Below are positions 13,907 through 57,451 of a stretch of DNA of 64,000 nt, one piece after another. Both the position numbers and the translations under genes were made by a program. Each line of letters starts with the position of its first letter. The stretch's first letter is position 1. Location: contig NC_133620.1 in assembly GCF_048593235.1 (NCBI RefSeq), positions 441,283,261 to 441,347,260 on the forward strand, written 5' to 3'. A model generated the notes under the pieces. That model had not been told where the DNA came from. It searched no databases and saw only the letters and a program-made list of their open reading frames with translations. This stretch comes from Sminthopsis crassicaudata (taxonomy: Eukaryota).

Positions 13907-14324
13907 GTTTGGGGGTATCACGTGGCTCGGCAGAACGACCATCACCCCTATTTGCAGGCAGGAAACCTTGGGACTGTTCTTGTGGTCTTGGGATTGGGGT
14001 AGTCTTTCTCCTCTCTACTGCAGCAGAGTGCCTAAAGAGAAAAGATTTAGTGAAGGAGAAAGTCAGTGACTGATCCGAAGTCCTGTGTGCAGATGTTGAT
14101 TGATCTTGCTGTCAGGAGAACCTACATTCTTGTAAGCAGAAGGCAAACACTCGGAAGTCTGGAGATCGATTGGTTGGATCTAGGGAGACCTGAGGAGAGC
14201 CTCTCACATAAATTGTGAGGTGAAACGGACTGCAAAAGACCCTGGGTGTGGGGGGGGGGGGGGAGAGAAGGACTCTGATAATTTGGAGTACAGAGGAGTC
14301 TGTAAGGACGGTCCTCGTCAAATT

Positions 14325-14870
14325 GTGGGGAAAGCGCAGTCCAAACCCCCAAATCAGGAGCAATGTGAGGAGGTGCCGGTTAAGAGCCCCCTAGGGAATA
14401 GGTTGCAAAACTGGAATGAGTTACCAAAATATAAGGAAAAAGAAAAGAAAATGATACAATGTTTTGTATGGGGTGGCGAAAATATTGGCAAAGGAGTAAT
14501 TTGGCCAAGATATGGGTCCGCTGAGGGTTGGGTCTGCCAACAATTGAATTTATATGTAAATGAAAAAGATCCCTTTAATCCAGAGGAAGCAATTTATGCA
14601 AGTCTCTGGCTTTCAGGGACTGACACTCCATTATTTTTGAGTCAAAAGAAGGAGGTGAATAAGCCACTGGTGAGAAAGCTGAAGATTCCACCTCACCCCT
14701 GGGATCCCCCCCTTGTTATCCTGTCTCCTTGTGCTCTGCCACCCCCAGCACCTCCAGTGGCAGTGGTGCTCCCACAGGCTCCCCCAAAGGAACAGTCTGG
14801 ACCAACCGAGCCCTCTCTTAATGATCTGGGGACCCTGGGAGTCGCAGAAACTAGGGAGGGACACATTGAG
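14325..14870 (+). pseudogene. gag: Class I (HERV-I/ERV3-like) gag, MA and p12-like region; start codon mutated to GTG
   Basis: (M)GKAQS myristoylation motif; SPLGNRLQNW...WPRYGSAEGWVCQQLNLYVNEKDPFNPEEAIYASLW resembles HERV-I-type MA; Pro-rich region follows. Confidence 0.75.
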
Positions 14871-14874
14871 GAAG

Positions 14875-15205
14875 GAATGTGCAGATCTGAATTTTGTTGT
14901 AGTTGTTGTTGTTGTTGTTGCAAAGGAAGAATTGGATTCGGAAGGTAAAAAATAATCTGGGGAGAAAAACAAAAAAAAATGCTAACAGTTTACACTCATT
15001 TCCCAGTGTTCCTTTTCTGAGTATAGCTGATTCTGTTCATCACTGATCAATTGGAATTGGATTAGCTCTTCTCTATGTTGAAGATATCCACTTCCATCAG
15101 AATACATCCTCATACAGTATCATTGTTGAAGTGTATAATGATCTCCTAGTTCTGCTCGTTTCACTCAGCATCAGTTGATGTAAATCTCTCCAAGCCTCTC
15201 TGTAT
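14875..15205 (-). mobile_element. LINE-1 3' fragment, truncated at both ends
   Basis: Close match to 33020-33290 of the L1 in this window; no poly(A) tail. Confidence 0.9.
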
Positions 15206-17150
15206 CTTAGAACAAGTATTAAATGAAGTACAGAAAGAACTAGAATACCACAGTTTAAAAATTGCCCCAGAAAAAATACAAAGACAACTACCTATACAGT
15301 ATTTAAGCCACATTATATCATATAAAAACATACAATTGAAATCTCCTAGAATCAGCAAAATCAACATATTAAATGAATTCCAAAAATTCATAGGTGAGAT
15401 ACAATGGGTAAGGAATAAAATAGGGATCCCTACTGATCAATTACAACCTTTATATGGCTTATTGAAAGGACCCAGTGAGTTGAATTCAAGGACATGGACT
15501 CCTGAAGCAATAGAATGTATCACCACTCTAGAAAAGGAGCTAGCAGAACAATTCACTACTAGGATAATGAAAGAAAAACCAGTCCTAGGAACGATTCTGA
15601 CCACAAGGAATTTATTCACAGGGATTATTCACTAAGAGGAAAGGATTTTAGAATGGGTCCATCTGTCTAAAATTAAAAATAGGTTATGCACTAGTCATCA
15701 CATCCTAATAACTATAACCATAAGAAAATTATGGGAAAAGACAGTTTGATTAACAGGACAGGATCCTGAGGTCATATACTTTCTATATACCAATGACCAA
15801 ATTTAGGAATGCATACAAACATCAACTGAATGGCAAATTATTGCAAATCTGAATTTACAACAGGGAAACATTTTGAGATTCGAGTGACAATGGACCGAAT
15901 GCCCCTGGATTTGGGCTACAATATATATGGAAGTGTCAGTCACAGGGATAAACATCTTCACTGATGCCGTTAAAGATAAAAGGGCCACAATGTATACAGC
16001 AGCAGGTCACAATTATACAAATTTCAAACCTGTTTCACTTCAACCCAGCAGAATGAATTGTGGGCAGTTATCAAGGTTTTAGAAATTGACGAACCTTCTA
16101 ACATTGTTACAGACATTTCTTATGTGGCAGGTCTCATATCTCAGCTTTAGACAGTGTATATTTCAGATAAGCAAGACAATATAACACAATTATTACAACA
16201 ACCACAAAATACTATCAGGAAAAGACGGTCTTGTTTTTATATTTGTCATCTCAGGTTTCACACTCACCTCCCTGGTCCAAAAGTGGAAGGAAACAATATC
16301 AAATAATAAATGTATCCCCTACACACAAGCCATGAGTATTAAAAATACACTGGCTGCACAAGGCCACAATAAACACCACTTCTCTGCAAAATCATTAAGG
16401 CAATTATATGGAATCTCCAAAGAACAGGCCAGACAGATAGTAAAACAATGCACAAATTGTGTCCCTTTTCTTCCATCACCAAAAGTTGCAGTTAGAAACC
16501 CAAAAGGAGACGCTCCCAATGACATTTGGCAGATGGATAGTCCTCATTATAATTCCTGTGGAAAGAGCAAATATATTCACTTATCTGTAGACACTTTCTC
16601 TGGTTTCTTGATGGCTTCAGCACAAACCAGAGAATCATTTAAACATGTCACTAGTGATTTAATGTGTTGTTTTGCTAATCATGGCATTCCCTGAATATTA
16701 AAAACAGACAACAGTCTTGCTTATGTTTCAAAACCTTTCCAACAATTCTGTTTCAAATACTCTATTAAACAAATAACAAGGATCCCCCATAATCAGACAG
16801 GCCAGCCCATTGTTAAATGGAATAATCGAACTCTCAAGGTCTACCTCGAAAAACAAGAAGTTGTTCATGGATCCATTCGTAACAAATTACAAACAGTAGT
16901 TTTTACAATAAAGTATTTGAAATTTGATGACAAAAGTCTGTCTCCAGCCATGAAATATCAATTACAAAATTTGAAAGTAAAAAAAAAGAGAAAAGAGAAG
17001 TCCACAACAGGAGTGAGGGTCATGTGGAGAGATCATGAAAAACAGTGATATGGGCCACATACAGTACTAATATGGGGAAAAGAGTATTTTTGTATTTCCA
17101 CAGGAGAAGGAGAAAAGTGGGTTCTAGTGAAAAGAATCTGTGTACTGCAG
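15206..17150 (+). pseudogene. pol: Betaretrovirus-like pol remnant (RT thumb, RNase H, integrase); element 1
   Basis: LKIAPEKIQ, LNEFQKFIGEIQWVR, NIFTDA, SLRQLYGISKEQARQIVKQCTNC, WQMD, VDTFSG; many stops and frameshifts. Confidence 0.9.
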
Positions 17151-18870
17151 GATGGGGAAGAAGTCACAGGGAAATAGGCAGCATGTGAAGAAGAGAAAAA
17201 AGCATCTAACAGAACTGATCAAAACTAGCAACATACAAAAGGAACATTGTCATCAGAATAATCAGCAGCAAGCTGATAATGATAGGAAGAGCTCCCATCT
17301 TAACATCTGGAAGAATCAAGCAGACACACAAATGGGCTTTCATCCCATCCCCACCTTGGCTAAAAATCCTCACATGGACAGAGACTATGCCAGAATTTTT
17401 TTTTTTTGCACAATAACCTGCCCCATATGTTTAAAGAGGGTGGTTTTAAATGGGACTCAGACAACAATCAATGACATTCAAAAAGACATTTCATTTTACA
17501 GGACTAACCAAGGGGCTACCATTATGCATCCAGAAAGTGATGGGGGAGTTTGGACAGGGGATAAGTGGGAGTACAGGGAGTACAGGCTTGGTGGGTTGAT
17601 GTGCTTCACTAAGGGAAGGTGTCATGTATCTAAGGGACACATCCCTAAGAGCAGAGGCGGGCACTTTATCCATTAGCATTCGCTGATATCACTTGTACAC
17701 ATGGAGACTAGAAGGTCACGATATTCTCAGCAAATCTAATAATTGGTTGAACAACAGGCATAGCGAATTCTGTAATAGCATCCTTCCTCACAACCTATCA
17801 ATAATGTACCATTATCCAGGGTTTATGCCTTTTAAGGAGCACGTCACACATCAGTGTGCACAAACCACTTTAAGGCAGGAGAACTATACTGAGTCTTTGG
17901 TCTCTTGTCATAACACTACCATGTACATATGGGCATGTAGGGGCAAGAGAATATCCAAGACTGAAATACATTCATAATTCAGGGCTGGAAATAAAAGGTA
18001 TAGAGAAAGCAGTCTCTGCTGTGGGAGGGATGACAGTACAAGGATGCCAAAATAGTGAGAATTGACCTTAGGAATAATATTACAAGCAATGTTATTCTGA
18101 CTGCTAGAGTTTGTCTAGGAAAAAGCTATGCATTTCTTGTAGATAAAAACATGTCTAAAATCACAACATATAGAGAAGGAGTCTTCAATTTGACATGTAT
18201 TAGATATCAGGTAGAAACTTGCATTGGGCCAAAATTCAAGGGAAGAATGTACATAGTCACTTGTCCCCACTACGCTTTTACTGTTGTGAAAGCAAACTCT
18301 TGGTATCGTACCTGTAGTGATAATATTTTTGTTGAGGCTATTGTAGCCTCCACAGCATTGGCTTTTATCTATATCTAACACTAAAAACCAAATAACAGAA
18401 GCCCAGGAAAAATCTATCAGCCGGATTTAGGATACAATTAAAGGTTGATGAGGAATTTTATGAAGCTATACATCGATTACAAAAGGTAATACACTTTGTA
18501 AGAGAAGAGATGCAATATTTAGAATTACAGCAAAAATTATGATATGATTATACATATGATCAATATTGTTTAACGGATGCACTATATAACAAAACACAAA
18601 TACAATGGGAGATAATTAGGGCTCAGTTACATGGATTAAATTGGGAAAATGTGACTTATGAATCAAGTAGATTGACTCAAATTGCAGATAGTAGATCAAG
18701 CCGCTGACCAAAGAATTAGACTCAGTGATGTTACAGAAAAAATCATCTCATTCTTTCAACAAGCTGACCCATGGAGTCAGTTGAAACAATTTGGAATCAC
18801 TCTAGGAGCAATTATGTTGCCAGTTGTAGCAACCCTATATTTACTACCAATGGTTTGAGACCTGTATTAA
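17150..18870 (+). pseudogene. env: Beta-type env remnant (SU and TM)
   Basis: WAFIPSPPW..LTW SU N-terminal motif ~17335; TM KL*YDYTYDQYCLTDALYNKTQIQWEIIRAQLHG ~18535 (decayed CX7C loop). Confidence 0.75.
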
Positions 18871-19029: not shown

Positions 19030-19850
19030 GTGAACAAGATGTCATTGGGAGGAAGGGGTCCCACTGGAAAAGCAATGTGGCAGTTCCAGGATGGGAGAAC
19101 AATACCCACATACCTTATTAGGAAAGGAATGCTCACTTTGACTTACATATAGCTTTCCTGGAGATCACCATATAAGGAATTATATATCTGCTATTATAGG
19201 CTAGAATGTGCTTACGCTAAGCTATAGGAACTAGAGGCATATACTGAGAAGATAGAAGGGCCTGCTGGTTTTGTAATAAATGGAGTCTTTCAACATCCTG
19301 GCTCTCATCCCTCATTACTCACAGTCTTTGCCATTCAGGTGACCGGGAATTGCTGGTCATACACAACTCGCATCACTCAGGAGTTTGGGCTGAGAACCCA
19401 GACAGGACTAAACTTCGGAAGGATATTGGATTGTCACCTTATGAACTCCTATGTGGACATCCATATCCTGGAAGAAGAGGACAAAAAGATATAGGACCTG
19501 TATGGGACACCAAAGACTTGTTTATTAGACAACATATTTTACAACTTGTTAAGCATTTATATGAATTGCAATTAAAAGGACTTATTGCTCAGACCCCACC
19601 TTTAGAATTTGCTGTACACAAATACCAGCCTGAGACTGGGTCCTGATCCGAACCTAGAAAGAGGAAAAATTGACCCCAACCTGGAAAGGACCCTTCCAAG
19701 TCCTTCTAACCTCAGACACTGCTGTAAGAACACAGTAACATGGTTCGACTCATTACACCTGGGTAAAAGGACCAGTTTCTCCTCCTGAGGAATGGACAGT
19801 AGAATCTGAGCCCACAGATAGACTCTGTGTCCGCCTGAGGTGAGTCTGAA
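19030..19850 (+). pseudogene. pol: Class I ERV integrase region remnant
   Basis: WQFQDGR; KDIGLSPYELLCGHPY; KGLIAQTPPLEFAVHKYQP; KLTPTWKGPFQVLLTSDTAV (HERV-I-like IN C-terminus). Confidence 0.85.
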
Positions 19851-19921
19851 AAAAGATTAATGAACACCTTGTGTGTTAATCTGGGGCACTATAATTTGAT
19901 TTAGATAAAATAATACCCTTT

Positions 19922-20898
19922 GTGATGGTGGGGGGGATGGGAGGAGGGTTCATTGGGTATTTGACTTTACTGGTATTCTCCCTGCTGATCTCTAGGCTGA
20001 TTCCTGATGCACCATGGGAGGGCAACACCTTTCAGATTCTAATACAAACTATAGCTAGTACTTTTAATGTAACTGATTGCTGGATTTGTGGAGGGCCCCA
20101 AGTTGGTCCCATACCTCTCATACCTGAGTGGTTAGTAAGCAATTTTTCTTTAACTCATAATGGCACTGGATTCTGGGAGTTAAAGAAAGACATTACCAAG
20201 AGTTAGCAGTTGAAGAATTAGGAGAGTATTGCTTAAAGGAGGAATTGGACAGGCCTAGAAAGAGCATAGATACCTCTACTACTCAATGTGGAAAAGCTAA
20301 AGGATGGGGAGATTTGTGGCCACCTGAGAGAATCATTAAGACCTATGGGGCTACAACTTGGAGCTCAAGATGGGAGTTGGGAATATAGGACCCCTATATA
20401 TATGCTAAATAGGATAATTAGGCTACAAGCAATAGTAGAAGTTATCACCAACCAAACAGCTAAGATTCTTGACCTGTAAGCCACTCAGACCTGAGAAGCA
20501 GTATTACAGCATAGATTGGTACTAGACTATCTTTTAGTTGAGGAAGGAGGTGTATGTAGAAATTCAATTTATCCAATTGTTGCATGAGAATAAACAATAA
20601 CAGGGCTGTGGTAAAAGAAATTGCGCAAGACATTAGGAAGTTAGATTGGGTCCCTGTACAAACTTGGCAGTCATCTTTTAATAGGTCTTGGTGGTCCTGG
20701 TTTGGAAGTAGTTGGGGGAAACAGGCCTTGTGGTTCCTGCTTGTAGCCATTAGTGGAATTATATTGATTCCTGTGTGCCTCCCATGCATGATCAAATTGA
20801 TCACGAATATAGTGCAAACTGCCATAGCCAAAATGAACAGATTAGAGACAAAAACTATGCAAGGAATTAGACTGATGGTTTTAAAAGGGCAAGGATGA
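19922..20898 (+). pseudogene. env: Class I ERV env remnant (ERV3/HERV-I type), internally deleted
   Basis: TFNVTDCWICGG; [26 protein letters not shown]; decayed ISU and CX6CC; TM anchor LWFLLVAISGIILIPVCLPC. Confidence 0.88.
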
Positions 20899-20949
20899 GA
20901 ACCAGTACCTACAACCACAAAGAATGAACAGTAAGGAAATCTCACTCTT

Positions 20950-22200
20950 CAGCACCAAGATGAAGGATGAAGGATCTTTAGCACCTTTTGGAAAGGATAT
21001 TCCAGTTGCCCTTGGAAACAACATATGTTAACAACACATGATCTCCTTTTGTCTGGAAAGAAAAGGAAAGAAGTGCCTTATTAAACTTTTGGGGCACCCA
21101 GGGTTTGAGAGTTTTACCTAAATAATTACAATTTGTGGAGAGAGAGGTTAGTATTTGGTTTAGATATTTAATTAGTGAAGGAAGAAGGAAAATCAGCCCT
21201 GAGCAAGTTCAAGGAATTATTCACCTTCTCTTACCCCAACTAAGCAGAAGTTTAGGAAATTCCTGGGATTTATTGGGTATTGCAGATTATGGATAAACTC
21301 TTATGCCCAAATGACTAAAGGGTTATATAAGAAATTATTAGCAGAAGAACCTGAGGCCCTAACATGGAAGATGCAAGAAAAAGAAAGTGTCCAAATTGGT
21401 GCACATACATATGACTGTTCCAGTCCTGGCCCTCCCCACTCCAGACAAACCATTTCATCTGCTTGTCATTGTGGGAAAGGGAGGAGTGTAAACTCAGTCA
21501 TGGGCCAAAGGCCAGTTGCCTTCTTGTTAAAATCACTAGAACCCAGTGTTTCAGGGATGGCCCAAATGTGCCCAAGTTATAGCAGCCACAGCCATATTAG
21601 TAGGAGAGAGTAGAAAATTGTGGTTTTGGGAAGTATTACTTCCAAAGTTAGGACAATTCTAAACAAAAAGGCAGGGAGATGGCTGACTGATCTAAGGATC
21701 TTAAAACATGAGTCTATATTAATGGAAAAGGATGGTCATTGATAATGATGTCAATCCTGCAGCTTTTCTGCAAAAAGAAGGGATGAATCAAAATGAGCTA
21801 GAACATGATTTTTTGGATCTGATGAACTTTCAAACTAAAGTGAGGAAGGAATTAAAGGATATTCCTTTCAAAACAGGGAGAAGATTGTTGATGGGTCTTC
21901 CAGGGTAGTGGAAGGAAAGTATAGAAACAGCTATACAATAATAGATGGGGAAACCTGGCAAGTGATAGAATTAGACGTCTTGCCAAAACAATAATCCATT
22001 CAAACATGTAAGTGGTATTCCGGAAGTCATGTACTTAAGGCCCTAAAAGAAGGGGTTGAGACTTTTCTACACTGACTCTAAATATGCTTATGGTGTGATA
22101 CATAGTGTTGAAAAAATGGGAAGAAGGGCAGGAACTAGTCCATGGAGAGCTGATTAAGCAAATGTTAGTGTTGAGTGCTGGATAATGGGTCATAGCCAGC
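20950..22200 (+). pseudogene. pol: Class I ERV RT-connection-RNase H remnant, lying downstream of env
   Basis: Decayed YVDD region (..DLLLSG ~21050), RKFLGFIGYCRLWI, KGLYKKLLAEEPEALTW, RNase H YTDSKYAYG ~22070. Confidence 0.85.
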
Positions 22201-23079
22201 CCCCCCCCGCCCCCCTTCCTTGCCATTAGGACTGGGAGAATTGAATTTTTAAAAAGAACCCAGGAAAATCATTGAAGCTCCAACCACCTTTACATACCAT
22301 TCCTTACTATTGGCTATTAACACAAAGGCTACCATGGGCCAGGAAAAGTTGCACCAAATGTTTGTTACTTCCTTCACAACTTTTGAAAGCTAGGTAAAGG
22401 ATAAGTAATACATAAACAAACTCAGAGCTATTTCTCAAAGGAGATACTGAGAGATGACTAACAATGTCCTGTGGTAGCCCTAAACTGGGCTTTGAAGAAA
22501 ACAGTATGTTACAGAAAGGCTGGGAGGAAGTACATTGTAGATATGGGAGACTGCTTAGGCAAAGATAGAGAAGATGGATTATGGAATGTAGAATTTTGTG
22601 TATAAAGAAACTAGTATTCTTATTGGTTGAAATAAAGAGACATAAAGGAGAGTAATATTGGAAGGGTATGGAGGAGTCTGAGAGGGCGTTAAATGCTAGG
22701 ATGATAATTTTATTTGTATTATAGAAGCCAAAAGAACCAATGAAGAGTTTTGGAAAGAGAAATTGCATTAGTCACAGATATTTTAGACATATCACTTTGG
22801 TGGTTTTGTGTGGGAAAGATCAGAAAAGAGAAAGAATAAAAAATGTAGACATTTACTATGTTCTGTATTTTATCACCATATCACTAGGCTTTCCTTTTAA
22901 TTACTAATTTGTTCCTGTTGAACTATGGAAGCAATCATACTTTTGTATCTCTTTCCAGATAAAGTCTTTAAGATCTTTAAGACCCCAGTAAGGTCCTGTG
23001 TTAGTATGGACTCATTATTTTTCTAAATAAAGTCCTACTAGGATCTGTCATTATTTTTCTGAATTAAGTCCTACTAGGA

Positions 23080-23427
23080 TGTCCGTCCAGCGGGACTCAA
23101 TTATTTGGGGGAAGGGGTCGAGGGGAACCCAGCCTGAAAGAGAATCAGGCGAGAAAGAAGAGTGAGACCAAGCAAGTTCTTGTCAAGGTCTATTTTAATG
23201 TTCTCAGGCACGGCTTATATAGCAAAAAGCATGAGGAAGAGAAGTAGGGTTGGGCCTGGGAAGGGAACATGGGCAATGGCTGGTTCAACGCACAGGAACA
23301 TATTGCAATTGGGACATACAATGTTGGAACATTCTGTGGTCGGCCAATTCTCAGAACTGTTTGCCTAAGGGTGTGGTTCCCATGCAGGGGAGAAGGGCAC
23401 CTGGGCCGAAGCTGTTGGCTCTCAACA
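23080..23427 (-). repeat. 3' LTR of element 2
   Basis: TG...CA termini on -; TATATAAG and ATTAAA; differs from the 5' LTR by 3 substitutions and 1 indel. Confidence 0.97.
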
Positions 23428-23445
23428 TTTCCCCCTTTTCTCTTT
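23428..23445 (-). promoter_or_regulatory. Polypurine tract
   Basis: AAAGAGAAAAGGGGGAAA on - abutting the LTR TG. Confidence 0.92.
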
Positions 23446-23486
23446 AGAAGGCAAAAAGATTTTTCTACACAAGGGCTGGTGAAAGG

Positions 23487-23727
23487 CCTGTCTTAGGCTA
23501 TGTGGCTTGCACCCATGCTCCGTACCTAGATAACCAGGCCCTCAGGGCCAAGAAGGGTAGGGCCCCTGTCTTAGGCTATGTGGGTGGCCCCGCCCCCAGC
23601 ATCTTCACCAAAATTGGCTGAAGCGTGTCTCTGGGAGCGGACCCACAATAATTGGACATTGGGTGTCCCTGCAGCCATAAAAGGTATACTTCCGGGTCAT
23701 GGGGCCACAATATTCCCGTCATTGGCT
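23487..23727 (-). promoter_or_regulatory. CTE-like RNA export element
   Basis: Exact 19-nt direct repeat CCACATAGCCTAAGACAGG (23487-23505, 23565-23583) and AGCCAATGACGGG (23715-23727) between env and PPT; resembles the type-D CTE as I recall it. Confidence 0.7.
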
Positions 23728-23771
23728 CTTTCACAGCAATAGCCGTACTTTTGCAACTAAGGTCGTGTCCC

Positions 23772-24410
23772 TCAGAGGTACCCCCATACCCTTAAGTACC
23801 ACAGGGACTGAATCTCTGTGGCAAGGGTAGAGAATCGAAGGCTCTCATGGGCAATGGTAGAAGGGAGGTCATCACAGGATCCATTGGCACTAAGCTGATG
23901 ATAAAGAACAGCGACAGGTTTTTGCAGGGCAGAATCGACCTGTGACTTGATGAAACTAGTCAGTTTGTTGAAGGCCCATGGGCCGAAGGAGAGAAGCAGC
24001 AAAACACCTACAAAGGACCCTAAAAGACTGGGGAGTAAAGTGGTAAGCCAGGGGGATGTAGAGAACCAATTTTGATACCAGGATTTGTTCTGCTCTCTGT
24101 CTCTCTTTCTTTTTTCTAGGCTTTCTTTGACCTTTTTCAGACTATCTTCTACAAGGCCAAGCTTATCAGTATAGAAGCAACATTCTTCTTTTAATGCAGC
24201 ACAAAGGCCACCCTGTTCCAAAAAGAGGAGGTCTAAGTCTCCTATTCTGCAGGACTACTTCAGCCAGAGAGGCGACAGAGTCTTTAAGGTGCTCCAGGCC
24301 TGACTACAGTTCCTGAAGATTTTTGTCAATAGCTGCACTGAGCTGAGCATACTGCAAGTTGGAAGTAACTAAGGAGGCAATTCCTGTTCCTGCACCCACT
24401 GACCCCAGGC
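23772..24410 (-). pseudogene. env: Gammaretroviral-type env TM only (SU absent)
   Basis: GLGSVGAGTGIASL fusion peptide, SLAEVVLQNRR-LDLLF ISU (frameshifted), GGLCAALKEECCFY (CX6CC), SPWLTTLL, membrane anchor; one stop and one frameshift. Confidence 0.93.
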
Positions 24411-24436
24411 CTGGTGTGCAGGAGGATCAGTGGCCC

Positions 24437-25290
24437 TTATGAAAAATGGTCACAGAAGCCTAAGCCTGTATGGTCTGTCTTAGGGGTGGTCGTTATGGGT
24501 ATCAAGCTTCCCTGTCCATCTCTACCTAGGCCCTGTCCAGGAAGGAATCCTTGGGAAAGCATTTGCTGGGCAACGACCGCATTGGGGCTACACATAAGGA
24601 TTCCCATTTGGGATAAAATATCTCTCCCCCACAAGTTAACAGGCAGGCCGGGAAGGACAAATGGCCGCACAGTGCCTGAATTTCCTTCCCCATCCTTCCA
24701 AACCAATAGTTGTGAGCTCTGCAGGGTGTTTTTGGACTGTCCGATGCCCTGCAAATGAATCATGGAAACCTGTAGGGGCCAGCTAGAGGGCCAGGCATCT
24801 TGTGAAAGGACAGTGGAATTGGCCCCAGAGTCTAAAATGCCTTTAAAAAAACTTTCCTTGTATAGTAAGTTTAAGAGTGGGACGCTCCTGAGTTAATACT
24901 CTGAACCCAATAAAGATCCGATGAACTGGGCTGAGACGCTACACGCCTGGCTAAAGCATTACCCCTTCTCCTAAATATCGGGTAGTCAGTATTTAAAGGG
25001 AGGGGCAACGCCTGAGCCATGCGCTGTCCCCGTGTGATGGAAACTGGGCCATAGCGGGCAGTAACTAACAACTTGATCTCACTGGTATAGTCATTATGGA
25101 CCAGAGAGGGGTGGATGGACAGACCATTAAGGGTAGAGGAGGCGCGACCCAAAATCAAAAGATAAGTAGTGGGTGGAGGGGTGGCCGAAGACACCCGTTG
25201 AAAGAATCTGCACTCCATCCTCCGGATTTAATATTGCTGAGGAGGAGGCACCTAAGTCCACCCCTGCGCTGCCTAGGGTTGCTCGGAGGA
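24437..25290 (-). pseudogene. pro: Betaretroviral pro: dUTPase, protease, G-patch
   Basis: RATLGSAGVDL, NDYTSEI, GQRMAQ (dUTPase); ILDSGA, NLWGRDIL (protease); QGFLPGQGLGRDGQG (G-patch). Confidence 0.92.
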
Positions 25291-25339
25291 GGGAGAGTGG
25301 GTTTTCGGGCTGCTCCCCGAGGCCCGGACAAATGGTATG

Positions 25340-44146: not shown

Positions 44147-45942
44147 GGTTTCCTCTGTTAAAAACAAACACTCCAGAAACACGAGATCTATTTGCTGTGG
44201 TGAGAGCAGGTAGGCTTTCCAGATGCTCCTTGGTGTCAGGAATAGAGACTCGAAGGTCATCTCTTGTGGTGCTTCCCATTCAGCCATGAATTAGGTTGGG
44301 GGACAAATTAGGTGTGCGCCATTTCCTTTGCTGTGAAGGTCTGAGAATAAAAGGATTATGTGGAACGTACTGTGTGGTCCTTGTGGACACTGGGACATTC
44401 ACCCACACTCTAAAGGGTTCTAGACTAAAGGGAGCGTTCAGAACTGCTTAAATTAAGCAAGTCGGAGTGGAACCCGTAGTATTCTCTCCGACTTCACAGC
44501 TCAGCCTTTCATTTATCCGAGAGTTTTCGAGTAATTTTTATTGGGCCTGGCAGTTGGAAATTAGAAGTTAAAACCGTCCGCGCAAGCTCTCCTGGACATC
44601 CCTGCTCCCTTCTCCTCCTTCCGGGGCGTGGCTGATGTGTCCGGTGCTCCTCCTAAACGCTGGATCCTCACAACCCGGATTTCTATATGAAAAAGGAGAG
44701 TTGCTAATTCACGTTTTTTAGTCCCTGTCAATGGTGTCTCTACTGTGTGACCCACCCTTGAAATTTCCTTGGAACTGGCGTCCCAATACTGGGGGGGTGG
44801 GGGAGGGGAAGGGAAGGGAGAGGGGAGAAGAAAGGGCGATTTCAAAGTACTCTTCGCGGTTTCAGGCCTCTGCTTAGGGACCCGGCCGTGGGCCCGAAGA
44901 AAATAGAAGTGGAGGGTTCCCCCTCCCCCCGCCCCCGGGCAGCCGAGTCCTCCACCGACGGCTGCGCGCCTTTGTCTCTCCAGCTCAAACCGCAGGCGCC
45001 CTGCCTGCCCTCCCCTTGCCCAAAGACCAGGTTACCAAGAGGAAAAAAGGCAGGAGGAAGAGTGACTGGGCCCCTTTAGGAGTCGCAGCTTTGGCGGGAG
45101 CAACTACAGAGACCCCAGTTCGGGGCGTTCCTTCCTTCCCCTGGCGTGCCCCGCCATAGTGCTGTCCGGACCGAGGCCCTGCAGAAGCCTCTCCTCCTCT
45201 CTCCCGCAAAACTTCACCCCTAGAGTCAATCTCGAACTCGCCCCTCAAGGGTGGGAGGACAATCGCAGGTCATCTAATTGAGACCTAAGTGGCCACTTTC
45301 CCACCGCATCTGTCGTTCTCCGGCTTGAGCAGAAATCCTCGGAGTTGAATTCTACTGTTCCTACTCAGCAGTTTCTAGATTAGTCGAGTTTGGGGACCAC
45401 GGCAGCCACTCCAATCCCCCCCCCCCCCCCCCGGAGCTCTAGAACGCAGCCCGCTCAGAAGGTGGAGGAACCTCGGGCTACTTTCAGGAAAACGATCGAG
45501 GGAGGGGGAGAGGAAGTGGGAGAGGGGCCTCAGCCTAGTCGAGTGATTAAAAAAAAAAAAACCCAACCCAAACTGTCCCTCAGCCACTGAAACGCGAACA
45601 CTGCTAGTCCAGAAACGGAGTCTGTAACTCGGTCCAGACTACCAAAAATTGACAAGGAACTGTTCCCCCCCCCACTCCCTGTCCCCCCCTCCCCCCCCCC
45701 GTAGGTTAGCAAAGCGTCGTCTCCTATGGGCTGGAATCCTTGGCGCGGAGGGTGGGGTGCAGGTTGAGTTTCTCTCCGGCAGCGGGCTTCTCCCTCTCGC
45801 GTTCTCCCCGCCTCCCGTCCCCCGGGTGGCCCCTCCCTCCTCCCTTCTCCATTTTCTGCTTTTTGCACGCTTCCCCAGCAGAGGCCGGAAGCGATCGGAG
45901 CCATTTTCCTTCCTTACGGGCGAGGAGGGCTGGGGCAGCGCA

Positions 45943-45974
45943 CCAATCACGGCGCAGCCCTTACCTATATATAA
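45943..45974 (+). promoter_or_regulatory. H1 promoter CCAAT and TATA
   Basis: CACCAATCACGGCGC (CCAAT 45943-45947); TATATATAA 45966-45974; G-rich box upstream. Confidence 0.9.
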
Positions 45975-46063
45975 GTGGGTCAGCGCGGAGCTCGCTTATT
46001 CGCGAGTCCGCGGCGTCCTCTAGTGACTTCTCGCTGTCGCTGCTGTACGGTCCCTTCGCTGCC

Positions 46064-46723
46064 ATGTCCGAGACGGCCCCCGCCGCTCCCGCTGCCCCGG
46101 CCCCCGCGGAGAAGGCTCCGGCCAAGAAGAAGGGCAAGCGGGCTTCGGCCGCCGGGGGAGCGCGGCGCAAGGCCGCGGGTCCGCCCGTGTCGGAGCTGAT
46201 CACGAAAGCCGTGAGCGCCTCCAAGGAGCGCAATGGCGTGTCCCTGGCAGCCCTGAAGAAGGCGCTGGCGGCGGCGGGCTACGACGTGGACAAGAACAAC
46301 AGCCGCATCAAGCTGGGGCTCAAGAGCCTGGTGAGCAAGGGGACCCTGGTGCAGACCAAGGGCACCGGCGCCTCGGGCTCTTTCAAGCTGAACAAGAAGG
46401 CCCCGACGGCCGACACGAAGACTAAGGCCAAGAAGCCGGCCTCGGCCAAGACCAAGAAGGCTGCCGGTGCCGCCAAGAAGCCCAAGAAGGCGACGGGTGC
46501 CGCAGGCGCCAAGAAGACGGTGAAGAAGAGCCCGAAGAAAGCCAAGAAGCCGGCGGCCGCCAAGAAGGCGACCAAGAGCCCGAAGAAGGCCAAGGCGGCC
46601 AAGCCCAAGAAGGTGGCCAAGAGCCCAGCTAAGCCCAAGGCGGCCAAGGCCAAGAAGGTGGCCAAGCCCAAGACGGCGAAGCCCAAAGCCGCCAAAAGCA
46701 AGAAGGCGACAGCCAAGAAGTAG
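46064..46723 (+). CDS. H1: Replication-dependent somatic linker histone H1, 219 aa
   Basis: GCCATG at 46064; [14 protein letters not shown], globular domain [12 protein letters not shown]...[11 protein letters not shown], Lys/Ala/Pro tail with SPKK motifs; subtype not assignable. Confidence 0.98.
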
Positions 46724-46755
46724 AGAGGTAGCGCTCGAACCTTGACCCACCCAAA

Positions 46756-46797
46756 GGCTCTTTTCAGAGCCACCCACTCGCCTCAGGAAAAGAGCTG
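46756..46797 (+). promoter_or_regulatory. H1 3' stem-loop and HDE
   Basis: GGCTCTTTTCAGAGCC 46756-46771; AAAAGAGCTG 46788-46797. Confidence 0.97.
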
Positions 46798-47551
46798 AAC
46801 CTCTCGACCCCGCCAGTTTCTAGAGAAAATATTGCAATCCTATTAAAATAAAAAACCCACCTAAATGAGCAAATAAAAAAAAAAAAATTCGCAAATAAAA
46901 GTAAGATATCGTAAAAATTATTTAATAATAAGTAGCATATATCCATCCAACCCAATGTTCTTCGCTCCTCCTCGTTTTCCTTGTGCTGATGGCAGTGTTA
47001 AGAAAAAAAAATGTCCCGTCCCCCGTCTGTCTCCCTTGCCCAGTTGGCCAAAGTCTGTGCGTTGAACAAGGAGAGGGGTTTTGCTTTGCTCTTTCCCCCC
47101 TCTTTCTCCCCCAAATCGGAAGTTTACTAAAAAACGTTTAGTTGCCAGTGTGCATGCTCCACTCCTGACTTGTGTGCGTGCGCGCAAGTAAAACCAGCAG
47201 GGAGGGCAGGGAGGGCAAAAGGAATTGGACGCAGCGCCGCCCTCGGCGCATTCACTAGCTAACCATCTGTCTCCGCAGTACGCGGGCACTTGCGGGAGTC
47301 AGTCCTTCGTCATTGGGTCAAGACAGCAGCAGGGACCAAGAGGAAGCTGCCGTTTCGCGGCTACTTCCGCCGAAAAGACCCACCTGCCAAGTTGCCATGT
47401 CATTTGTACAAGAATCAAAACCCTGAAAATCCGCTGACCGTCCAAGGGAAGGCCCATGAATTCCATTTCTATATGCAGCGAAACCCAGAAATAAGTGCCA
47501 GTTGCAAGGTTAGGGGAGGGAGGGAAGGAAAAAAAAAAATGGGCGCGATTA

Positions 47552-47592
47552 CAGCTACTCTCGTGAGATCGTGGGTGGCTCTGAAAAGAGCC
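47552..47592 (-). promoter_or_regulatory. H3 3' stem-loop and HDE
   Basis: GGCTCTTTTCAGAGCC on - at 47577-47592; GAGAGTAGCTG at 47552-47562. Confidence 0.95.
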
Positions 47593-47630
47593 TTTGGGGG
47601 TGTAGACTTCCACGGGCGGAAAGCGGCACC

Positions 47631-48216
<586 letters not shown>

Positions 48217-49403
48217 ACCTCCCGGTTTGCCGTCTCTCCGCCGCCCCGCCCCTCAACCCTTCCCACGCCCCTCCCACCCCACTCTTCCTCCGCCCTTTCA
48301 CTTCGGCCCCACCCCCCACCCCAGCTTGACCCTCGCGGAAAAACCTGAGCCCGCTGAGTAGATCTCGTTTGTTCATCCCTTCTCCCACCACTGGCTTTTC
48401 TGGTAACCAGTCCGTCGAAAAAGTTGTGCAGTCCCTTCCCCGCAAACTCTGGGTCTCCTTGCCTTTCTCCCACCTCCCCCTTTCCTGTTCGCCCTCTCCC
48501 TCTGTTCGGCGGGAAAAGAACACCTCAGACGTTTGTTCGGGGCGCTGACGTGTGCCCGTGCCCGATGGATTCCCCCAACTTTCCACAGTTCGCTGGAATT
48601 TTTGCGCGGCCGGCCACCGACTTGACCCTCCCGCGCTTCTCCAGGGCACGCCCTTGGCTTTTCAGGGCACCCACCCAACGCCCGCTTAAAAAAACACCGG
48701 CCGGCACTCCCGAGACCACAGGGACCAGGAACTTCGGTTTTATTTCCACTTCTCCCTCCTGTTAAGTTACAACAGTAGTCCTAAAGGTGCGGGACGCTAC
48801 TTCCAGCAGCCAGAAACTCTGCCACCACCGCCACCACCGTCTCTTCCTCCCCTCACCAACCCGTTCCTCCCTCCCTCCCAGGGTTCCATTGCGTATGGGG
48901 CTCAGGACTGCGAACGAAAAGCCCGCCTAAGCGGCGGATTGGCCGGGAGTGAAGCTCCCGAGTTATCCGAGGGAAAGTTTGGGCTACGGGCACTTTAGCG
49001 AGTCACTTCCAACGCCCTGGGGGTCATCGCCCCGAGAACGGCAGTCGGCCGGCCACACTGGTCGACGTTCCTGTCAAGTGCAGTACATTGGGGCGCCGGA
49101 CAAAACTTGGTCGCCTTATGTGTCGGGACAAAGTGGCATTGAACGTTGTGACCAACAGCCTTGCGGACTGGGGGGAGGGGAATCAGCTAACTGGGTGAAG
49201 CGAGAGAGAAACGGGGGTCCTGACTCGACCTCGCTAAGGGAAGCGGGGACTTTCCTCCCGTACTCGGGTTGCTGAGTATTGACTGGGGCGACTCCGGTTC
49301 GTGCCGGAACTGAGGGACGGGAAAGGGGTACGTACGCGGCTCATCACGCCGCTTTCGGGCGCCGGCGGCCACCGGGATCGGGAACGAAGCCGAAGTTCGG
49401 AAA

Positions 49404-49446
49404 CAGCCCCTTTTCTCTGACAGGGTGGGTGGCTCTGAAAAGAGCC
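49404..49446 (-). promoter_or_regulatory. H2A 3' stem-loop and HDE
   Basis: GGCTCTTTTCAGAGCC on - at 49431-49446; GAAAAGGGGCTG at 49404-49415. Confidence 0.95.
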
Positions 49447-49491
49447 GTTGGTTTCGGGAGTGAGCCTTTCGGCCCCGGGAGCCGAGTCGGC

Positions 49492-49923
<432 letters not shown>

Positions 49924-49976
49924 TCAATCGCCAACTGGAAAACTACACTGGTGCTTCGGCCCGCCGCGCCGGGGCC

Positions 49977-50178
49977 TTTTATAGCTTGCGCCGGGACTGC
50001 GCGCCGCAGCCTTCTGATTGGTCGGCGCGATGTCTTTGTCCGAACGGCCACTAGGGAGGCTCGCCTCGGATTCCGTTATTTACATGGCCGGCCTCTCCGC
50101 CTATGACGACACTCCTGAGAAGCCGCCAATCGGAGCCTAGCTCTGCCCGAGCCTTCATTTGCATGTGAGCACTATAAG
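49977..50178. promoter_or_regulatory. Bidirectional H2A/H2B promoter
   Basis: H2A TATA 49977-49983, CCAAT 50017-50021 (-) and 50126-50130 (+), octamer ATTTGCAT 50157-50164, variant octamer ATTTACAT 50078-50085, H2B TATAAG 50173-50178. Confidence 0.93.
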
Positions 50179-50263
50179 TAGCGGGGGCCGGCTCGGCGGT
50201 CTTCGTTGTTCGTTTCTCGCAGTCGTTGCTTCTCTGCCTTTCGGCTCTTTTCCTCCTCTCGAT

Positions 50264-50644
50264 ATGCCCGAGCCGGCCAAGTCCGCCCCTGCCCCCAAGA
50301 AGGGCTCCAAGAAAGCCGTGACCAAGGCTCNNNNNNNNNNNNNNNNNNNNNNNNNNNNNNNNNNNNNNNNNNNNNNNNNNNNNNNNNNNNNNNNNNNNNN
50401 NNNNNNNNNNNNNNNNNNNNNNNNNNNNNNNNNNNNNNNNNNNNNNNNNNNNNNNNNNNNNNNNNNNNNNNNNNNNNNNNNNNNNNNNNNNNNNNNNNNN
50501 NNNNNNNNNNNNNNNNNNNNNNNNNNNNNNNNNNNNNNNNNNNNNNNNNNNNNNNNNNNNNNNNNNNNNNNNNNNNNNNNNNNNNNNNNNNNNNNNNNNN
50601 NNNNNNNNNNNNNNNNNNNNNNNNNNNNNNNNNNNNNNNNNNNN
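50264..50644 (+). CDS. H2B: Histone H2B; only the N-terminus is visible, the rest is in N gap 50331-50656 (end inferred from canonical length)
   Basis: MPEPAKSAPAPKKGSKKAVTKA; octamer promoter; stem-loop after the gap. Confidence 0.9.
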
Positions 50645-50692
50645 NNNNNNNNNNNNCCGGAGTCGCTCGCGCCGCCCCCGCCCCGAAACAAA

Positions 50693-50734
50693 GGCTCTTT
50701 TCAGAGCCACCCACCTTTTCTCGCGAAGGAGCTG
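50693..50734 (+). promoter_or_regulatory. H2B 3' stem-loop and HDE
   Basis: GGCTCTTTTCAGAGCC 50693-50708; GAAGGAGCTG 50725-50734. Confidence 0.95.
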
Positions 50735-51699
50735 TCTCGCGCCAAAAGTCCTTTAAAAGTTGCTCGCTCTCACCCACACGTCTGCCCCGCTTCCTTGCTC
50801 GCCCAAAAACTTGGAAGCCCACCTCTTCCCCGCACGCCCCCGGACCGAGGCACTCAAAGGCGGCGGAAAAACACCTTCAGCGCTTGCCGTCCTTTAAACT
50901 TTCCCTGGACCTTTGCCTGGCAACTCTGGCTCCCCTTTGCTTGCTTACTCTCCGCCCTCCATCCCGGACACCCGCAGCTTCGACGCGCATGCTCCTCACA
51001 AGTCCTTTGGGGTTATGAAACCTCCCTAGGGCAAATTCAATCCTCCCTTTCCATTACGGGAAAAAACTATTTCATAATCTCCAGTGTCCCGCCCCTCTGT
51101 TTTCTCGGTTCTAGAATAAACAACTTCACTTCCTTCCATTTAAAGCTCCTGTTTTTAACACTGTCAAGTTATTTTTAGTGTAGTATTCCAAACATAATTG
51201 CTTTCTAATGTGTTTAATAAAAGTTTAAAAATTTTGTTTGCCAAAGATACTAAGTTGAAAGCCAAGTTTTAGAATTGATATTAGAACTTCGAAGTAAGCA
51301 TTGTGTGTCTTTGTGTTTGGAGGCTTTGAGTGGGTAGTAGTTGAGAGTGAAGAAAGGGGAGGGAAAGATGAAATCCCTCCACCTAACATCCACCTCTTTT
51401 TTTCCCTTTTCTTAAATTAGATGATCTATGCTGAAAGAGAGAAGAGGAAGTTTGAAGCCAGATAATGTTTGGAATAACTTCTACAGAGCGTGTAATAGAA
51501 GACCAGTCAGGAAGAATAAAAAGTATTGCCTGCACTATTTTTGTCCATTAGGGACTAGACTGCCTCAATTTGTAGTGAATCCATTTGGCATTCTTTTTCA
51601 TGCCTTCCTCGGTGTTTTCAAAGCAGTTGAGGTATGTTTGGAGCCAGATAGGGGTGGGGGGAGTTTAAGAATTGAGGTTAAGTTAGAATACAAAGTATT

Positions 51700-53271: not shown

Positions 53272-53586
53272 TGTTAGGGGCCAGGACCGGTCACAGGAAA
53301 ACTCAACGGTGACTGCCTCTGCCTCTTCCAGCTTCCCCGACCCAACGGGGCTTTGGACGTCTCTGGCCCTCCTCGTTGAGACAGGAGGAGGGAATCATCA
53401 GACAGAGAGCCGAGGCGGATAGAACACAGTGATGTTTATTGAAGTTACAAGTCAGCAGTGTCTCCCCTTCAGATGCCTCCCCAGCACCCGCCCAGATCCT
53501 GTCGCGTCAGCAGTGTCACTGTGGCGGGTCCCAACATCAGGCGGTCTCCTTTCCACTCAGGAGGCCTAGGTCCAGAGCCCTTCACA
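53272..53586 (-). repeat. 3' LTR of betaretrovirus-like element 3
   Basis: TGTGAA...CCCCTAACA on -, AATAAA ~53435, preceded by PPT AAACAAAAAGGGGGAAT (53587-53603). Confidence 0.88.
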
Positions 53587-54248
53587 ATTCCCCCTTTTTG
53601 TTTAATGGATAGCGAGCCTCTGCTTTTATAGCTTCGAGGACAGTGCGGATGGCTCTAAGGATTACAGATAGTATGCAAGGTAAAAAGCAAAACATGAGCA
53701 TTAATAATACAGCTCCAATCATTCCAATCACAAGCCAATGAAATATATCTGTTAGATTAATCTTTTTCCACCAATCAATGAAATTTTTCTCCTTTTGTTC
53801 CCAATTATCCTCAAATGTTATAGTAGCATTCTGCATTGCTAATAGTATTTTGTCTAAAGCTTCTAACTCAGAAGTAGCATTTGTCATATAAGTGGCGTTT
53901 TTTAAGATGGTCTCGAGCTCAGAGTATAAAGAATTATTAAAGGGGATGGGTGTCACACATACTGGGTAATATTTATAATGGCATTGCATTCTCATGTATC
54001 TTAACATTAGAGCCTGCTGGTGAACTACATAACCTGAACCACTTCAGTTATCTGGGAGAGTCTAGTCATTAAAACTCTATCTTTTCTTGATGTTGCCAGG
54101 CCGCATTATTTTTTATCATAAATTGTTGGAGACTTTTCGCTAAGAAGGCAACCTCTTGTTGAATCTGGTAGATTTGGACCTCTATTACATTTAGGGCCAG
54201 GTTGAGTACGGAGATGGCTGTGTCTATTGATCCATCCCTCTTATCGCG
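53582..54248 (-). pseudogene. env: Beta-type env TM only (SU deleted), frameshifted
   Basis: RDKR furin site 54237-54248; CHYKYYPVC (CX7C); anchor WLVIGMIGAVLLMLMFCFLPCIL; ends at the PPT. Confidence 0.85.
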
Positions 54249-55763
54249 TTCTTTGGCCTCCCTCTCTGTCAGCGATATGCAGGTTTCTTTGGTGGTCTCG
54301 GGGATTTCTCTCAAGTTTCCCAGAGGGATCCATCGTTCTCCATCTCTTTCGTTTCCTCCTGTGGAGACACAAAGATATCCTTTGCCTCTCACAAGGACCT
54401 TATGAGGGCCCTTCCAATTTCCTCTCTCATCTTTCCACCACACAGTGCTACCCTCCAGGCACGTCTGTGGGTGCAGATCACTCTTTTGTTTTTTGTGATT
54501 TTCATTTCTAATTGGGGAAGTAATATAAAATTTCATGGCTGGTATTGTGCCTTCCTCTCTGATTTGTAAATAGTTCAGAGTAAAAACTGCTTTGGCTACC
54601 TGTGCTCTAGTTAACCTTCCTGCAACTCCCCCTTTTTGTTTAATGAGCGTGCATTTTAGGGATCGATTAGCACGTTCCACTATTGCTTGTCCTGTAGGGT
54701 TATAAGGAATGCCTGTAATATGATGAATGGCAAACTCGTTTAGGAAGGCCTTAAAGCCTCGAGAGGTATATGCAGGGCCATTATCCGTTTTTAGAGTGTG
54801 AGGTACTCCAATGGCTGCAAAGCATTCTAGCATGTGTTGTATCACACTTTTTGTGGCTTCACTGTTCTGTAGAGTTGCCATTATAAAGCCAGAGAAGGTA
54901 TCTACCGTTACATGAAGTAAAGAGGATTGAAAGTGAGTAACATCCATCTGCCAAAGAAAGTTAGGTCGATCACCTCGAGGATTAGAGGAGGGTTCTTGGG
55001 GAGGGGGCTTAAAGGGAATACAACTATTACAGTGTTTGACTATCCAGCGGGCTTGATCCCGGGAAATACCATATAACCGATGTAACGATAGAGCGGATAG
55101 GTGGAACTGAGAATGAGCTAACTCAGGGGCTAAATACCATATAGTAGTTATAGGAGATGCGAGGGAAGAGTCATCTATAGAATTGCCCTGGAATATAGGC
55201 CCACAATGCGAGGTGTGAGATCTGACATGGAGGACATACACAAATTCTTTTCTGGCAAGGAGTAAACTTTGAACTTGTTTAAACAGTTCCTTAATAGAAG
55301 AGCTTGACATATCCAACTCAGCATCAGCTATGTGTTGAAGAGCATTAGCACAATATAGACTGTCAGTGATTAAATTAAAGGGATCATGAGGTAATAACCT
55401 CAATGTAAAACAAATGGCTGCTAGCTCATTCTTCTGAGCAGAAGAGAAAGGGGTCTGCATGACTTCCAGTATTTTCTTCTCAGGGATGTACACAGCAGCC
55501 CTATTAGCCTTAGTGGCATCTGTAAACACGTTTACTCCATCTACTGGGTACTGTGAAAGAGGGCTTCTAGATAAGGTTATGGGCATCTCTTTCCATCCCC
55601 GAATGACGGGGGGAAGAGGTGAAGAGGTGAATGTATGGGTGGTATATATCATAGCCCAAGCTTCATATTCTTGGCTTAACTCTCTGAGGACCTCTTGAGG
55701 AGTTGATGAGTAAATGATTGGGCGTTTCCCAAAAAGTTGTACACATCTTTCACTAGCTTTCAT
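54069..55763 (-). CDS. pol: Open 564-aa ORF: pol connection-RNase H-integrase fused in frame to the env TM N-terminus
   Basis: ATG at 55763; RNase H FTD/NEL/TDS; IN H-X3-H-X23-C-X2-C, WQMD, TDNG, D(35)E; then RDKR and TM heptad. Expression unknown. Confidence 0.7.
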   Translation of the reverse strand: MKASERCVQLFGKRPIIYSSTPQEVLRELSQEYEAWAMIYTTHTFTSSPLPPVIRGWKEMPITLSRSPLSQYPVDGVNVFTDATKANRAAVYIPEKKILEVMQTPFSSAQKNELAAICFTLRLLPHDPFNLITDSLYCANALQHIADAELDMSSSSIKELFKQVQSLLLARKEFVYVLHVRSHTSHCGPIFQGNSIDDSSLASPITTIWYLAPELAHSQFHLSALSLHRLYGISRDQARWIVKHCNSCIPFKPPPQEPSSNPRGDRPNFLWQMDVTHFQSSLLHVTVDTFSGFIMATLQNSEATKSVIQHMLECFAAIGVPHTLKTDNGPAYTSRGFKAFLNEFAIHHITGIPYNPTGQAIVERANRSLKCTLIKQKGGVAGRLTRAQVAKAVFTLNYLQIREEGTIPAMKFYITSPIRNENHKKQKSDLHPQTCLEGSTVWWKDERGNWKGPHKVLVRGKGYLCVSTGGNERDGERWIPLGNLREIPETTKETCISLTEREAKERDKRDGSIDTAISVLNLALNVIEVQIYQIQQEVAFLAKSLQQFMIKNNAAWQHQEKIEF

Positions 55764-56860
55764 TACTATTGCTGCTTGTGATTCCTGGCGCTGTCTCAGA
55801 CATTACTTTATTTCCATTTATCTACTCTAAAACCCCCCATGATTGAAAAAGGACAGCAATCATTCCTTCATTATTAAGTATAATTAGCCCTATAGGTTCC
55901 TCTATATCAACGCGCATAAAGGTTTGTGGAGTTCTTTGTGCAATGATGTCCAGGACCTCTAAGGCATCCTTAGACCATTCTCGGGCGAATTTAGTTGGGG
56001 GTCTCCTTTAAGAATTGCATAGAGGGGTTCCATCTCTTGATCTGTTATAGGAATGGAGGTTCTTATCCACTGGATCGAACCTATTAATTTTTGAAAGTCA
56101 TTAAGTGTTTTTATCTTCTCAGGGGCTAATCTGGGAATTTGCTTAGATACCTGGTTCCCATTAATTTGATGGCCTAAGTACTGAAATTGCGATCCTTTCT
56201 GAATCTTTTCTGGGGCCACCTGAAGGTGGTTATTATTTAATACTATAATAGTTTGTTCCAATATTTCTTCTGTAATTTTTTGTTGTGGATGTGAAATTAG
56301 TACATCATCCATATAATGAATTATTCTCACTGTAGGAAATCTTTTTCTAATAGGATTAAGGATAGTAGCTACAGACATTTGACACAAGGTGGGGCTGTTA
56401 GCCATTCCCTGAGGGAGTACTTTGAATTGGTAAAGCTCTGCGGGGGATTCAAGATTAGTAGAAGGAACAGAGAATGCAAATTTTTCACAGTCATCCGGAT
56501 GTAAGGGAATTGAGAAAAAACAGTCTGCTATATCTATTATGAATATTTTCCATCCCCTTGGGATGGCAGTGGGTGAAGGTAGGCCAGGTTGGAGTGCACC
56601 AAACGGCACTAATGCTTCATTCACTTTCCTTAAGTCTATTAACATTCTCCATTTCCCTGATTTCTTTGGGATGACAAACACTGGAGAATTATAGGGGCTT
56701 GTTGATGGTTCAATATGTTTCTACTTCAATAATTTTTTGACTATCTCGTGGAGGGCTCGCAATTTCTGTTGTGTTAGGGGCCACTGGTCCACCCATATAG
56801 GTTGATTATGTTTCCATTTCAAAGGGATAGCCCTCGCTTCCCAGGTGGCCCCAATCAGTT
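55764..56860 (-). pseudogene. pol: Reverse transcriptase of element 3, frameshifted
   Basis: VIPKKSGKWRMLIDLR, IIDIADCFF, LPQGMANSP, HYMDD; slippery TTTAAAC at 56858-56864. Confidence 0.93.
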
Positions 56861-57450
56861 TAAATGGTGATCTTCAGTGCATAGTTGCGCCCCCATGCTA
56901 TTCAAGGCATCCCGTCCCCATAGATTTACAGGGAGCCCAGTCACACAGAGTGGTTTGAAAACGCCCTGTTTGTCCTCATACTCCCATCTCAAATATCTTG
57001 GCGTTGTATATGCAGCCTGAAGACCACCCACCCCAGTTATTGGCTGAGGCTTCCGTCTCTTTTCCCATTCTAAGGGCCAATCCTCCCTTATTACTGAAAC
57101 ATCTGCTCCAGTATCTAACATGCTCTCTAGATAATGTCCTTCTACCCCTAATATGATCATGGGGCGGTCTGCTGTTATTTGTTGTGCCCAATTTATCAGA
57201 GTTCTAGGAGTTGTCTTTATATAATCCTAATCTACCCACGGGAGTGGAATGGCCTTTGCAATTTCCTTTTCATATGTAATCTCAATTGGCCATGCATGGG
57301 AATTCGTAATCCAGATTTCTCTTTCCCTTGGATTTAATAACTATGTACTATAATAGAAGGAAAATACTCAGACCCAATAACTAAACGGGGGTAGTTTTGT
57401 TCAATTATTTTTTACTGTTATTGTGCTCCACGGGGAGAGCTCAACCAGAG
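56855..57450 (-). pseudogene. pro: Protease with degenerate upstream dUTPase-like region, no G-patch
   Basis: LDTGADVS, VNLWGRDAL; upstream IIVH..LLNPREREI..EIAKAIPLP. Confidence 0.8.
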
Positions 57451-57451
57451 G

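Follow-up and report, generated by a model that had tools for sequence, protein, structure and literature searches.

A predicted nested two-loop CTE homologue in a marsupial beta/gamma recombinant provirus family, with one loop in the window copy

Loop motifs of the constitutive transport element (CTE) are not confined to primate viruses: rodent retroelements contain them in CTE-IAP and in related TAP-binding elements. The CTE of type D retroviruses consists of two lobes, each of which binds NXF1:NXT1 (PMC4330390, PMC4330393), and in the model proposed in PMC4330390 an NXF1:NXT1 dimer with 2-fold symmetry serves as the docking platform for the likewise 2-fold symmetric CTE. The half-CTE primers given in PMC4330393 delimit the same two strands that are followed here, which we name Y (the strand ending in GAC) and X (the strand with AAGACA). 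Cellular CTEs are described as one-looped in PMC4338338, which considers it probable that the virus duplicated the loop and states that a single cellular loop requires duplication for a high reporter output; its main text makes no mention of marsupials (opossum, Monodelphis, Macropus, Sarcophilus). Bat betaretroviral endogenous retroviruses (ERVs) have been described to carry CTE (TBE) motifs as well (PMC3621094).

We analyzed a 64,000-nt stretch of DNA from the marsupial Sminthopsis crassicaudata (‘the window’, taken at its full length), for which an initial annotation had proposed that a type-D-like CTE follows the env stop of a provirus and precedes its polypurine tract. Our results support a CTE homologue in this expected position; one loop is predicted, and its core strands agree with those of the outer loop in type D. 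From sequence comparison and modeled folds, the element is very probably a CTE homologue for which a nested layout of two loops in the same direction is predicted in the family and a single loop in the window copy.

The provirus and the element in its 3′ untranslated region

The provirus is defective and located on the minus strand of the window, with the following organization:

23080..27802, minus strand: defective beta/gamma recombinant provirus of 4723 nt, recognized by its LTR pair, 6-nt target-site duplication and Pfam domains
23074-23079 and 27803-27808: target-site duplication of 6 nt, flanking the provirus
27454..27802, minus strand: 5′ LTR, 349 nt, with three substitutions and one single-base indel relative to the 3′ LTR
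27434..27451, minus strand: primer-binding site, presumably for a Lys-type tRNA
24437..27290, minus strand: gag-pro with several stops and frameshifts, in fragments in different frames
24409..24412, minus strand: deletion junction, joining the start of pol to the TM fusion peptide with 4-nt microhomology
23772..24412, minus strand: env TM remnant of gamma type with one stop and one frameshift; env stop at 23772
23428..23443, minus strand: polypurine tract
23080..23427, minus strand: 3′ LTR, 348 nt

The Pfam domains are Gag_p10, Gag_p24, zf-CCHC, dUTPase, RVP, G-patch, and TLV_coat. Gag, dUTPase, protease, and G-patch are betaretroviral; the capsid is closest to betaretroviral PDB chains, and a protein search returned seven capsid matches, of which the one that is named comes from bilby (73%, across one third of the query). 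The window TM shares the motif LCAALKEECCFY with all seven type C contigs and with none of the three type D contigs, and its CX6CC motif shows the same distribution. The identity of the window TM to type C TM reaches 53% at best, and in an unrooted TM tree it sits between the type C and type D groups. The initial annotation was right that pol and SU are lost: relative to another genomic copy, about 4.25 kb are missing at the deletion junction, where two half-matches overlap by 4 nt; of 49 candidates 40 were scored, and none of these other than the window copy bridges the two halves. No RNA run was among the sequencing runs listed for this sequence. Contigs of four sequencing runs cover the provirus (one of 3354 nt with zero differences) and a contig of one further run bridges the deletion junction. 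Coming from runs of unspecified or guessed type, these contigs carry no information on expression.

The provirus borders on a 36-nt tandem duplication (23012-23080), within which the target-site hexamer is located. Elsewhere in the window, a histone cluster (H4, H1, H3, H2A, H2B) is interleaved with retroviral remnants (12881-13252 and 45700-50800), and there are at least three further ERV remnants as well as a LINE-1 accompanied by a partial copy in inverted orientation (14184-18400, 19200-21650, 53580-58100, 31100-34900). One of these ERV remnants is of beta type and has long open reverse transcriptase and integrase frames.

The 3′ untranslated region (UTR) was compared with that of a type D virus contig (L037), of which 101 of 102 TM residues are identical to PDB chain 4jf3, which we take to be MPMV. 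The strands of the element in the window copy are:

23475..23737, minus strand: CTE-like element, predicted to form a long rod; flanked by the env stop (23772) and the polypurine tract (23443)
23715..23727, minus strand: Y1, outer-loop strand, with 13-nt identity to L037; predicted to pair with X2 (P 0.95)
23652..23663, minus strand: Y2, inner-loop strand, broken (4 of 12 positions changed)
23565..23583, minus strand: X1, first repeat copy, without a partner in the window copy; AAGACA predicted to be paired at five of six positions
23537..23549, minus strand: side hairpin at a predicted three-way junction between the loops
23486..23505, minus strand: X2, outer-loop strand and second repeat copy, with 12-nt identity to L037

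The initial annotation had pointed to an exact 19-nt direct repeat and an upstream word on the minus strand, both lying after the env stop and before the polypurine tract. We confirmed these observations. The repeat occurs at 23487-23505 and 23565-23583 with a period of 78 nt and nowhere else in the window, extending to 27 nt at 89% identity, while the upstream word (13 nt, 23715-23727) has a single site within the window. What had been read as a longer spacer before the first loop motif is no mere spacer, since it contains a second Y-type strand that is broken in the window copy. The loop words of 13, 12, and 11 nt are the only exact words of at least 9 nt common to the UTRs of the window (344 nt) and L037 (192 nt). 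These lengths were reached by 0, 1, and 2 of 300 dinucleotide shuffles, respectively, and the opposite strand shares no 8-nt word with the L037 3′ UTR. Scanning viral contigs with the X-X pattern retrieved nine stretches, three of them type D-like (contigs of 8.1–8.6 kb with the same repeat), and the Y-Y pattern retrieved 14, one being the L037 contig. A scan of Rfam gave no relevant family at E-values up to 10.

The folded window region has a z-score of −2.97, and one out of 100 shuffles was equally stable. A fold from the two repeats alone was discarded (z −0.33, no signal), which indicates that the fold needs Y1. The outer loop Y1:X2 is predicted with P 0.95 in contexts of 346 and 481 nt, dropping to 0.32 and 0.74 in contexts of 701 and 1001 nt. 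In the two shorter contexts the AAGACA of X2 is unpaired (P 0.79–1.0), being located in a predicted 6x6 internal loop opposite the GAC-ending strand. The predicted module consists of 3 bp, the 6x6 loop with AAGACA, 3 bp, a 5x3 loop and a helix, and its geometry is identical in the window, L037, L036, and the NXF1 intron of the host. The AAGACA of X1 is predicted to be paired in all four contexts and, with Y2 broken, the outer loop alone is predicted. In the window copy, a single AAGACA is thus predicted to lie in an internal loop.

The element may have worked in the ancestral virus and be inert in the window copy, which is compatible with our preferred explanation of the family and which we consider a serious possibility, if a somewhat improbable one. 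Y1, X1, and X2 are unchanged in the window copy, the outer loop is predicted at high probability, and the two LTRs differ by 0.9%, compared to 3.8–8.1% in six dated relatives (one close relative, L059, has no 5′ LTR in the stretch examined and falls outside this dating). These features argue against an inert relic. On the other hand, Y2 is broken and there are stops and frameshifts in gag, pro, and TM. The interior resembles that of older copies, with 23 substitutions private to it in about 985 nt and a CpG observed/expected ratio of 0.22. In addition, a single loop is weak in reporters according to PMC4338338, and by analogy the window copy would likely be a weak exporter at best. The combination of young LTRs and a decayed interior could reflect either a recent reinsertion of a decayed genome, which would have needed helper proteins, or a homogenization of the LTRs. 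No other LTR with more than 91% identity to the window LTR was found among 40 scored of 308 candidates.

Copies in the host genome, their spread and their origin

The UTR has at least 41 matches in its own genome (40 of 73 candidates scored), and the exact X-X pattern gave 38 matches compared to five for a control pattern. The family has the strand order Y-Y-X-X, in which the two Y strands come first, at a distance of 63–65 nt, and the two X strands second, at a distance of 78 nt; the order in the type D contigs is Y-X-Y-X. We aligned 23 copies, comprising the window copy, 16 dispersed copies, and six copies from an array on C7, with near-duplicates, most array copies, L062, L071, and L072 (all three with a partial element), and L074–L086 kept outside the alignment. 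The array (G000:C7:47.9-49.3 Mb) contains at least 20 copies of the element 3′ end, some of them paired 2.7 kb apart, which suggests a segmental duplication.

In 18 of the 23 rows, all four strands have at most one change. Y2 shows zero or one difference in 21 rows, the 4 of 12 changed positions being restricted to the window and L059, and X1 shows zero or one change in every row. In 18 rows, 3.4% of the cells in motif columns differ compared to 10.4% elsewhere, and subfamily-level changes affect one of 48 motif columns compared to 45 of 206 others; these figures overstate motif conservation, since the X-X pattern itself had served to find five of the rows and the X strands contain no CpG, while Y strands decay at theirs. 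The element is partly or wholly missing in six copies (L062, L072, L074, L076, L077, L081).

The initial annotation also suggested that genomes carrying the element could be packaged in trans. The window copy itself lends this no support, as none of the other scored matches (40 in total) has its deletion junction; for the family the suggestion is plausible. Seven out of 20 relatives examined (L054, L060, L063, L064, L066, L067, and L069), belonging to different UTR subfamilies, have gag joined directly to early reverse transcriptase at one point, with the TM tail and the element kept. These copies point to a defective lineage that spread and recombined, and the shared deletion together with the kept element fits spread in trans. 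The closeness to the polypurine tract could also explain why the element was retained.

Instead of descending from a shared viral CTE, the element might have arisen by convergence or by recent capture from the host NXF1 intron. We regard this as unlikely. The likeness to the type D CTE is confined to the loop strands, and the marsupial viral loops share the cellular Y-then-X direction, as would be expected from such an origin. Within the host NXF1 gene, an intron of about 1.6 kb harbors a one-loop element (L099:7674-7711, minus strand; G000:C6 near 248.90 Mb; fold z −3.84). Owing to its different Y loop, this element was not retrieved by the exact type D spacing patterns, which gave zero matches in the host genome. 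The host loop is AGAGAC, with flanks resembling those of the outer loop in type D; the viral element, in contrast, has the AAUGAC loop of type D between flanks of its own. Such differences argue against a recent capture from host NXF1; they bear on recent, not ancient, capture. An intronless NXF1-like open frame of 663 residues is located elsewhere (L096; G000:C7 near 20.41 Mb) and is probably a retrocopy.

PMC3621094 raises the question whether the CTE arrived with the gamma-type env. None of the seven type C contigs has either loop word within one mismatch in the stretch examined, and in the marsupial provirus the loops lie behind a different gamma-type TM. Taken together, this favors a CTE that belongs to the betaretroviral part, or one captured from the host more than once.

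The predicted two-loop rod

Descent from a viral CTE being our preferred reading, we turn to the structure shared by the copies. RNAalifold on the 23 copies yields a nested rod unprompted, with Y1:X2 outside, Y2:X1 inside, and a side hairpin between them. The flanks of each Y strand fit its own X partner, and in the type D register 96.5% of the inner-loop cells pair, compared to 31–48% in controls with the strands slid. Compensatory pairs are present at columns 45:236 and 46:235 (four rows each) and 83:194 (five rows). The last pair sits in the helix closing the inner loop, which also holds a one-sided change. The three pairs support the rod at the level of sequence; they are confined to one subfamily and hence count as one branch. 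Seven pairs are changed on both sides compared to 5.1 in shuffles, and 59–62 out of 500 shuffles have as many, which is not beyond chance. The covariation score exceeds all 500 shuffles, in a measure that is inflated by kinship.

Among the 23 single folds, the outer closing pair has P ≥ 0.95 in 19 and the inner loop P ≥ 0.5 in four, and forcing both loops costs at most 3 kcal/mol in 11 copies. For scale, one known loop scores 0.41–0.42 in two type D contigs with the same program.

It is doubtful that Y1:X2 is the only functional loop throughout the family, with Y2 and X1 being leftover duplicates that fold locally. The small number of single folds that favor the inner loop would fit this, and Y2 can close a small hairpin of its own; moreover, the window and L059 form a clade (support 99/96) and share the Y2 lesion at different loci, so that a one-loop form has been passed on at least once. 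Against this, Y2 and X1 are conserved in nearly all and all rows, respectively, the helix closing the inner loop contains both a compensatory pair and a one-sided change, and the inner loop emerges from the alignment fold. That the direct repeats serve packaging, dimerization or recombination, the CTE likeness being incidental, is highly improbable: the element adjoins the polypurine tract and the deletion in L081 lies inside the second repeat, but both strands and the geometry of a known protein-binding loop are matched.

Proposed function and comparison with known elements

The 3′ UTR element of the window is likely, by analogy, an NXF1-binding export element of a new layout. As in the type D CTE, each loop would bind one NXF1:NXT1 and license the export of unspliced RNA. 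Given their same direction and spacing of 57/72 nt, the marsupial loops may bind independently, or the three-way junction may bring them together. The two loops would have arisen by a duplication independent of that in type D viruses: when a Y-X hairpin is duplicated once in tandem, the outcome is Y-X-Y-X, whereas Y-Y-X-X would require a nested insertion or two arm duplications. Two-loop elements thus probably have two separate origins.

A broader proposal, in which we place intermediate confidence, is that a marsupial beta/gamma recombinant evolved a second, independent two-loop CTE with one module nested in the other and both in the same direction. Such an element could not lie straight on the 2-fold NXF1:NXT1 dimer; it would either recruit two heterodimers without a dimer platform or be folded back at the junction. 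Defective subfamilies would have kept it while spreading in trans, one lineage with a single loop. If true, a natural same-direction element with twice the spacing would make it possible to distinguish a need for symmetry from a need for merely two binding sites, with natural one-loop and two-loop copies coexisting in the same genome. We found no marsupial CTE and no same-direction loop layout in the literature; the layouts of CTE-IAP, the TAP-binding element, TvERV, and rodent betaretroviruses lie outside this comparison, and the novelty of the Y-Y-X-X topology is thus provisional.

As for the provirus, it resembles MEBrv 1 (PMC11334065), a marsupial endogenous betaretrovirus in which gag/pro of betaretroviral type is combined with an env like that of type C. 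This likeness is drawn from the description of MEBrv 1 only and is tentative on the env side, where the unrooted tree places the window TM between the type C and type D groups. Its LTR has 453 nt, compared to 349 nt in the window provirus, and the main text of PMC11334065 does not mention CTE, transport element, untranslated or export.

The cellular CTE in intron 10 of NXF1 shares the loop module and the Y-then-X direction with the viral element, and has one loop, as predicted for the window copy. In contrast to the cellular CTE, the viral element is closed by pairing over 230 nt rather than by a local hairpin, lacks the GGGUAAG splice-site-like flank, is located outside an NXF intron, and is predicted to have two loops in the family. 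One-loop Y-X hairpins were also observed in two metagenome contigs (L087:569-617, minus strand; L088:601-647, plus strand) with non-viral-looking flanks, possibly representing intronic NXF1 sequence from animal DNA.

The element resembles the type D CTE (MPMV, SRV) in lying downstream of env, in the identity of its loop strands to the L037 outer loop (over 13 and 12 nt), and in the predicted module geometry described above. For the family, two loops are predicted by the alignment fold, with the inner loop favored in four of 23 single folds; for the window copy, one loop is predicted. The type D CTE is organized as Y-X-Y-X with 2-fold symmetry (PMC4330390, PMC4330393), whereas the marsupial family has Y-Y-X-X with both loops in the same direction. 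The marsupial element is also longer (246–288 nt compared to about 130–175 nt), its loops are more widely spaced (30/35 nt in type D), and it has a side hairpin and no stem similarity to type D outside the loops. Differing in both symmetry and length, it is set apart from the members of the type D CTE group.
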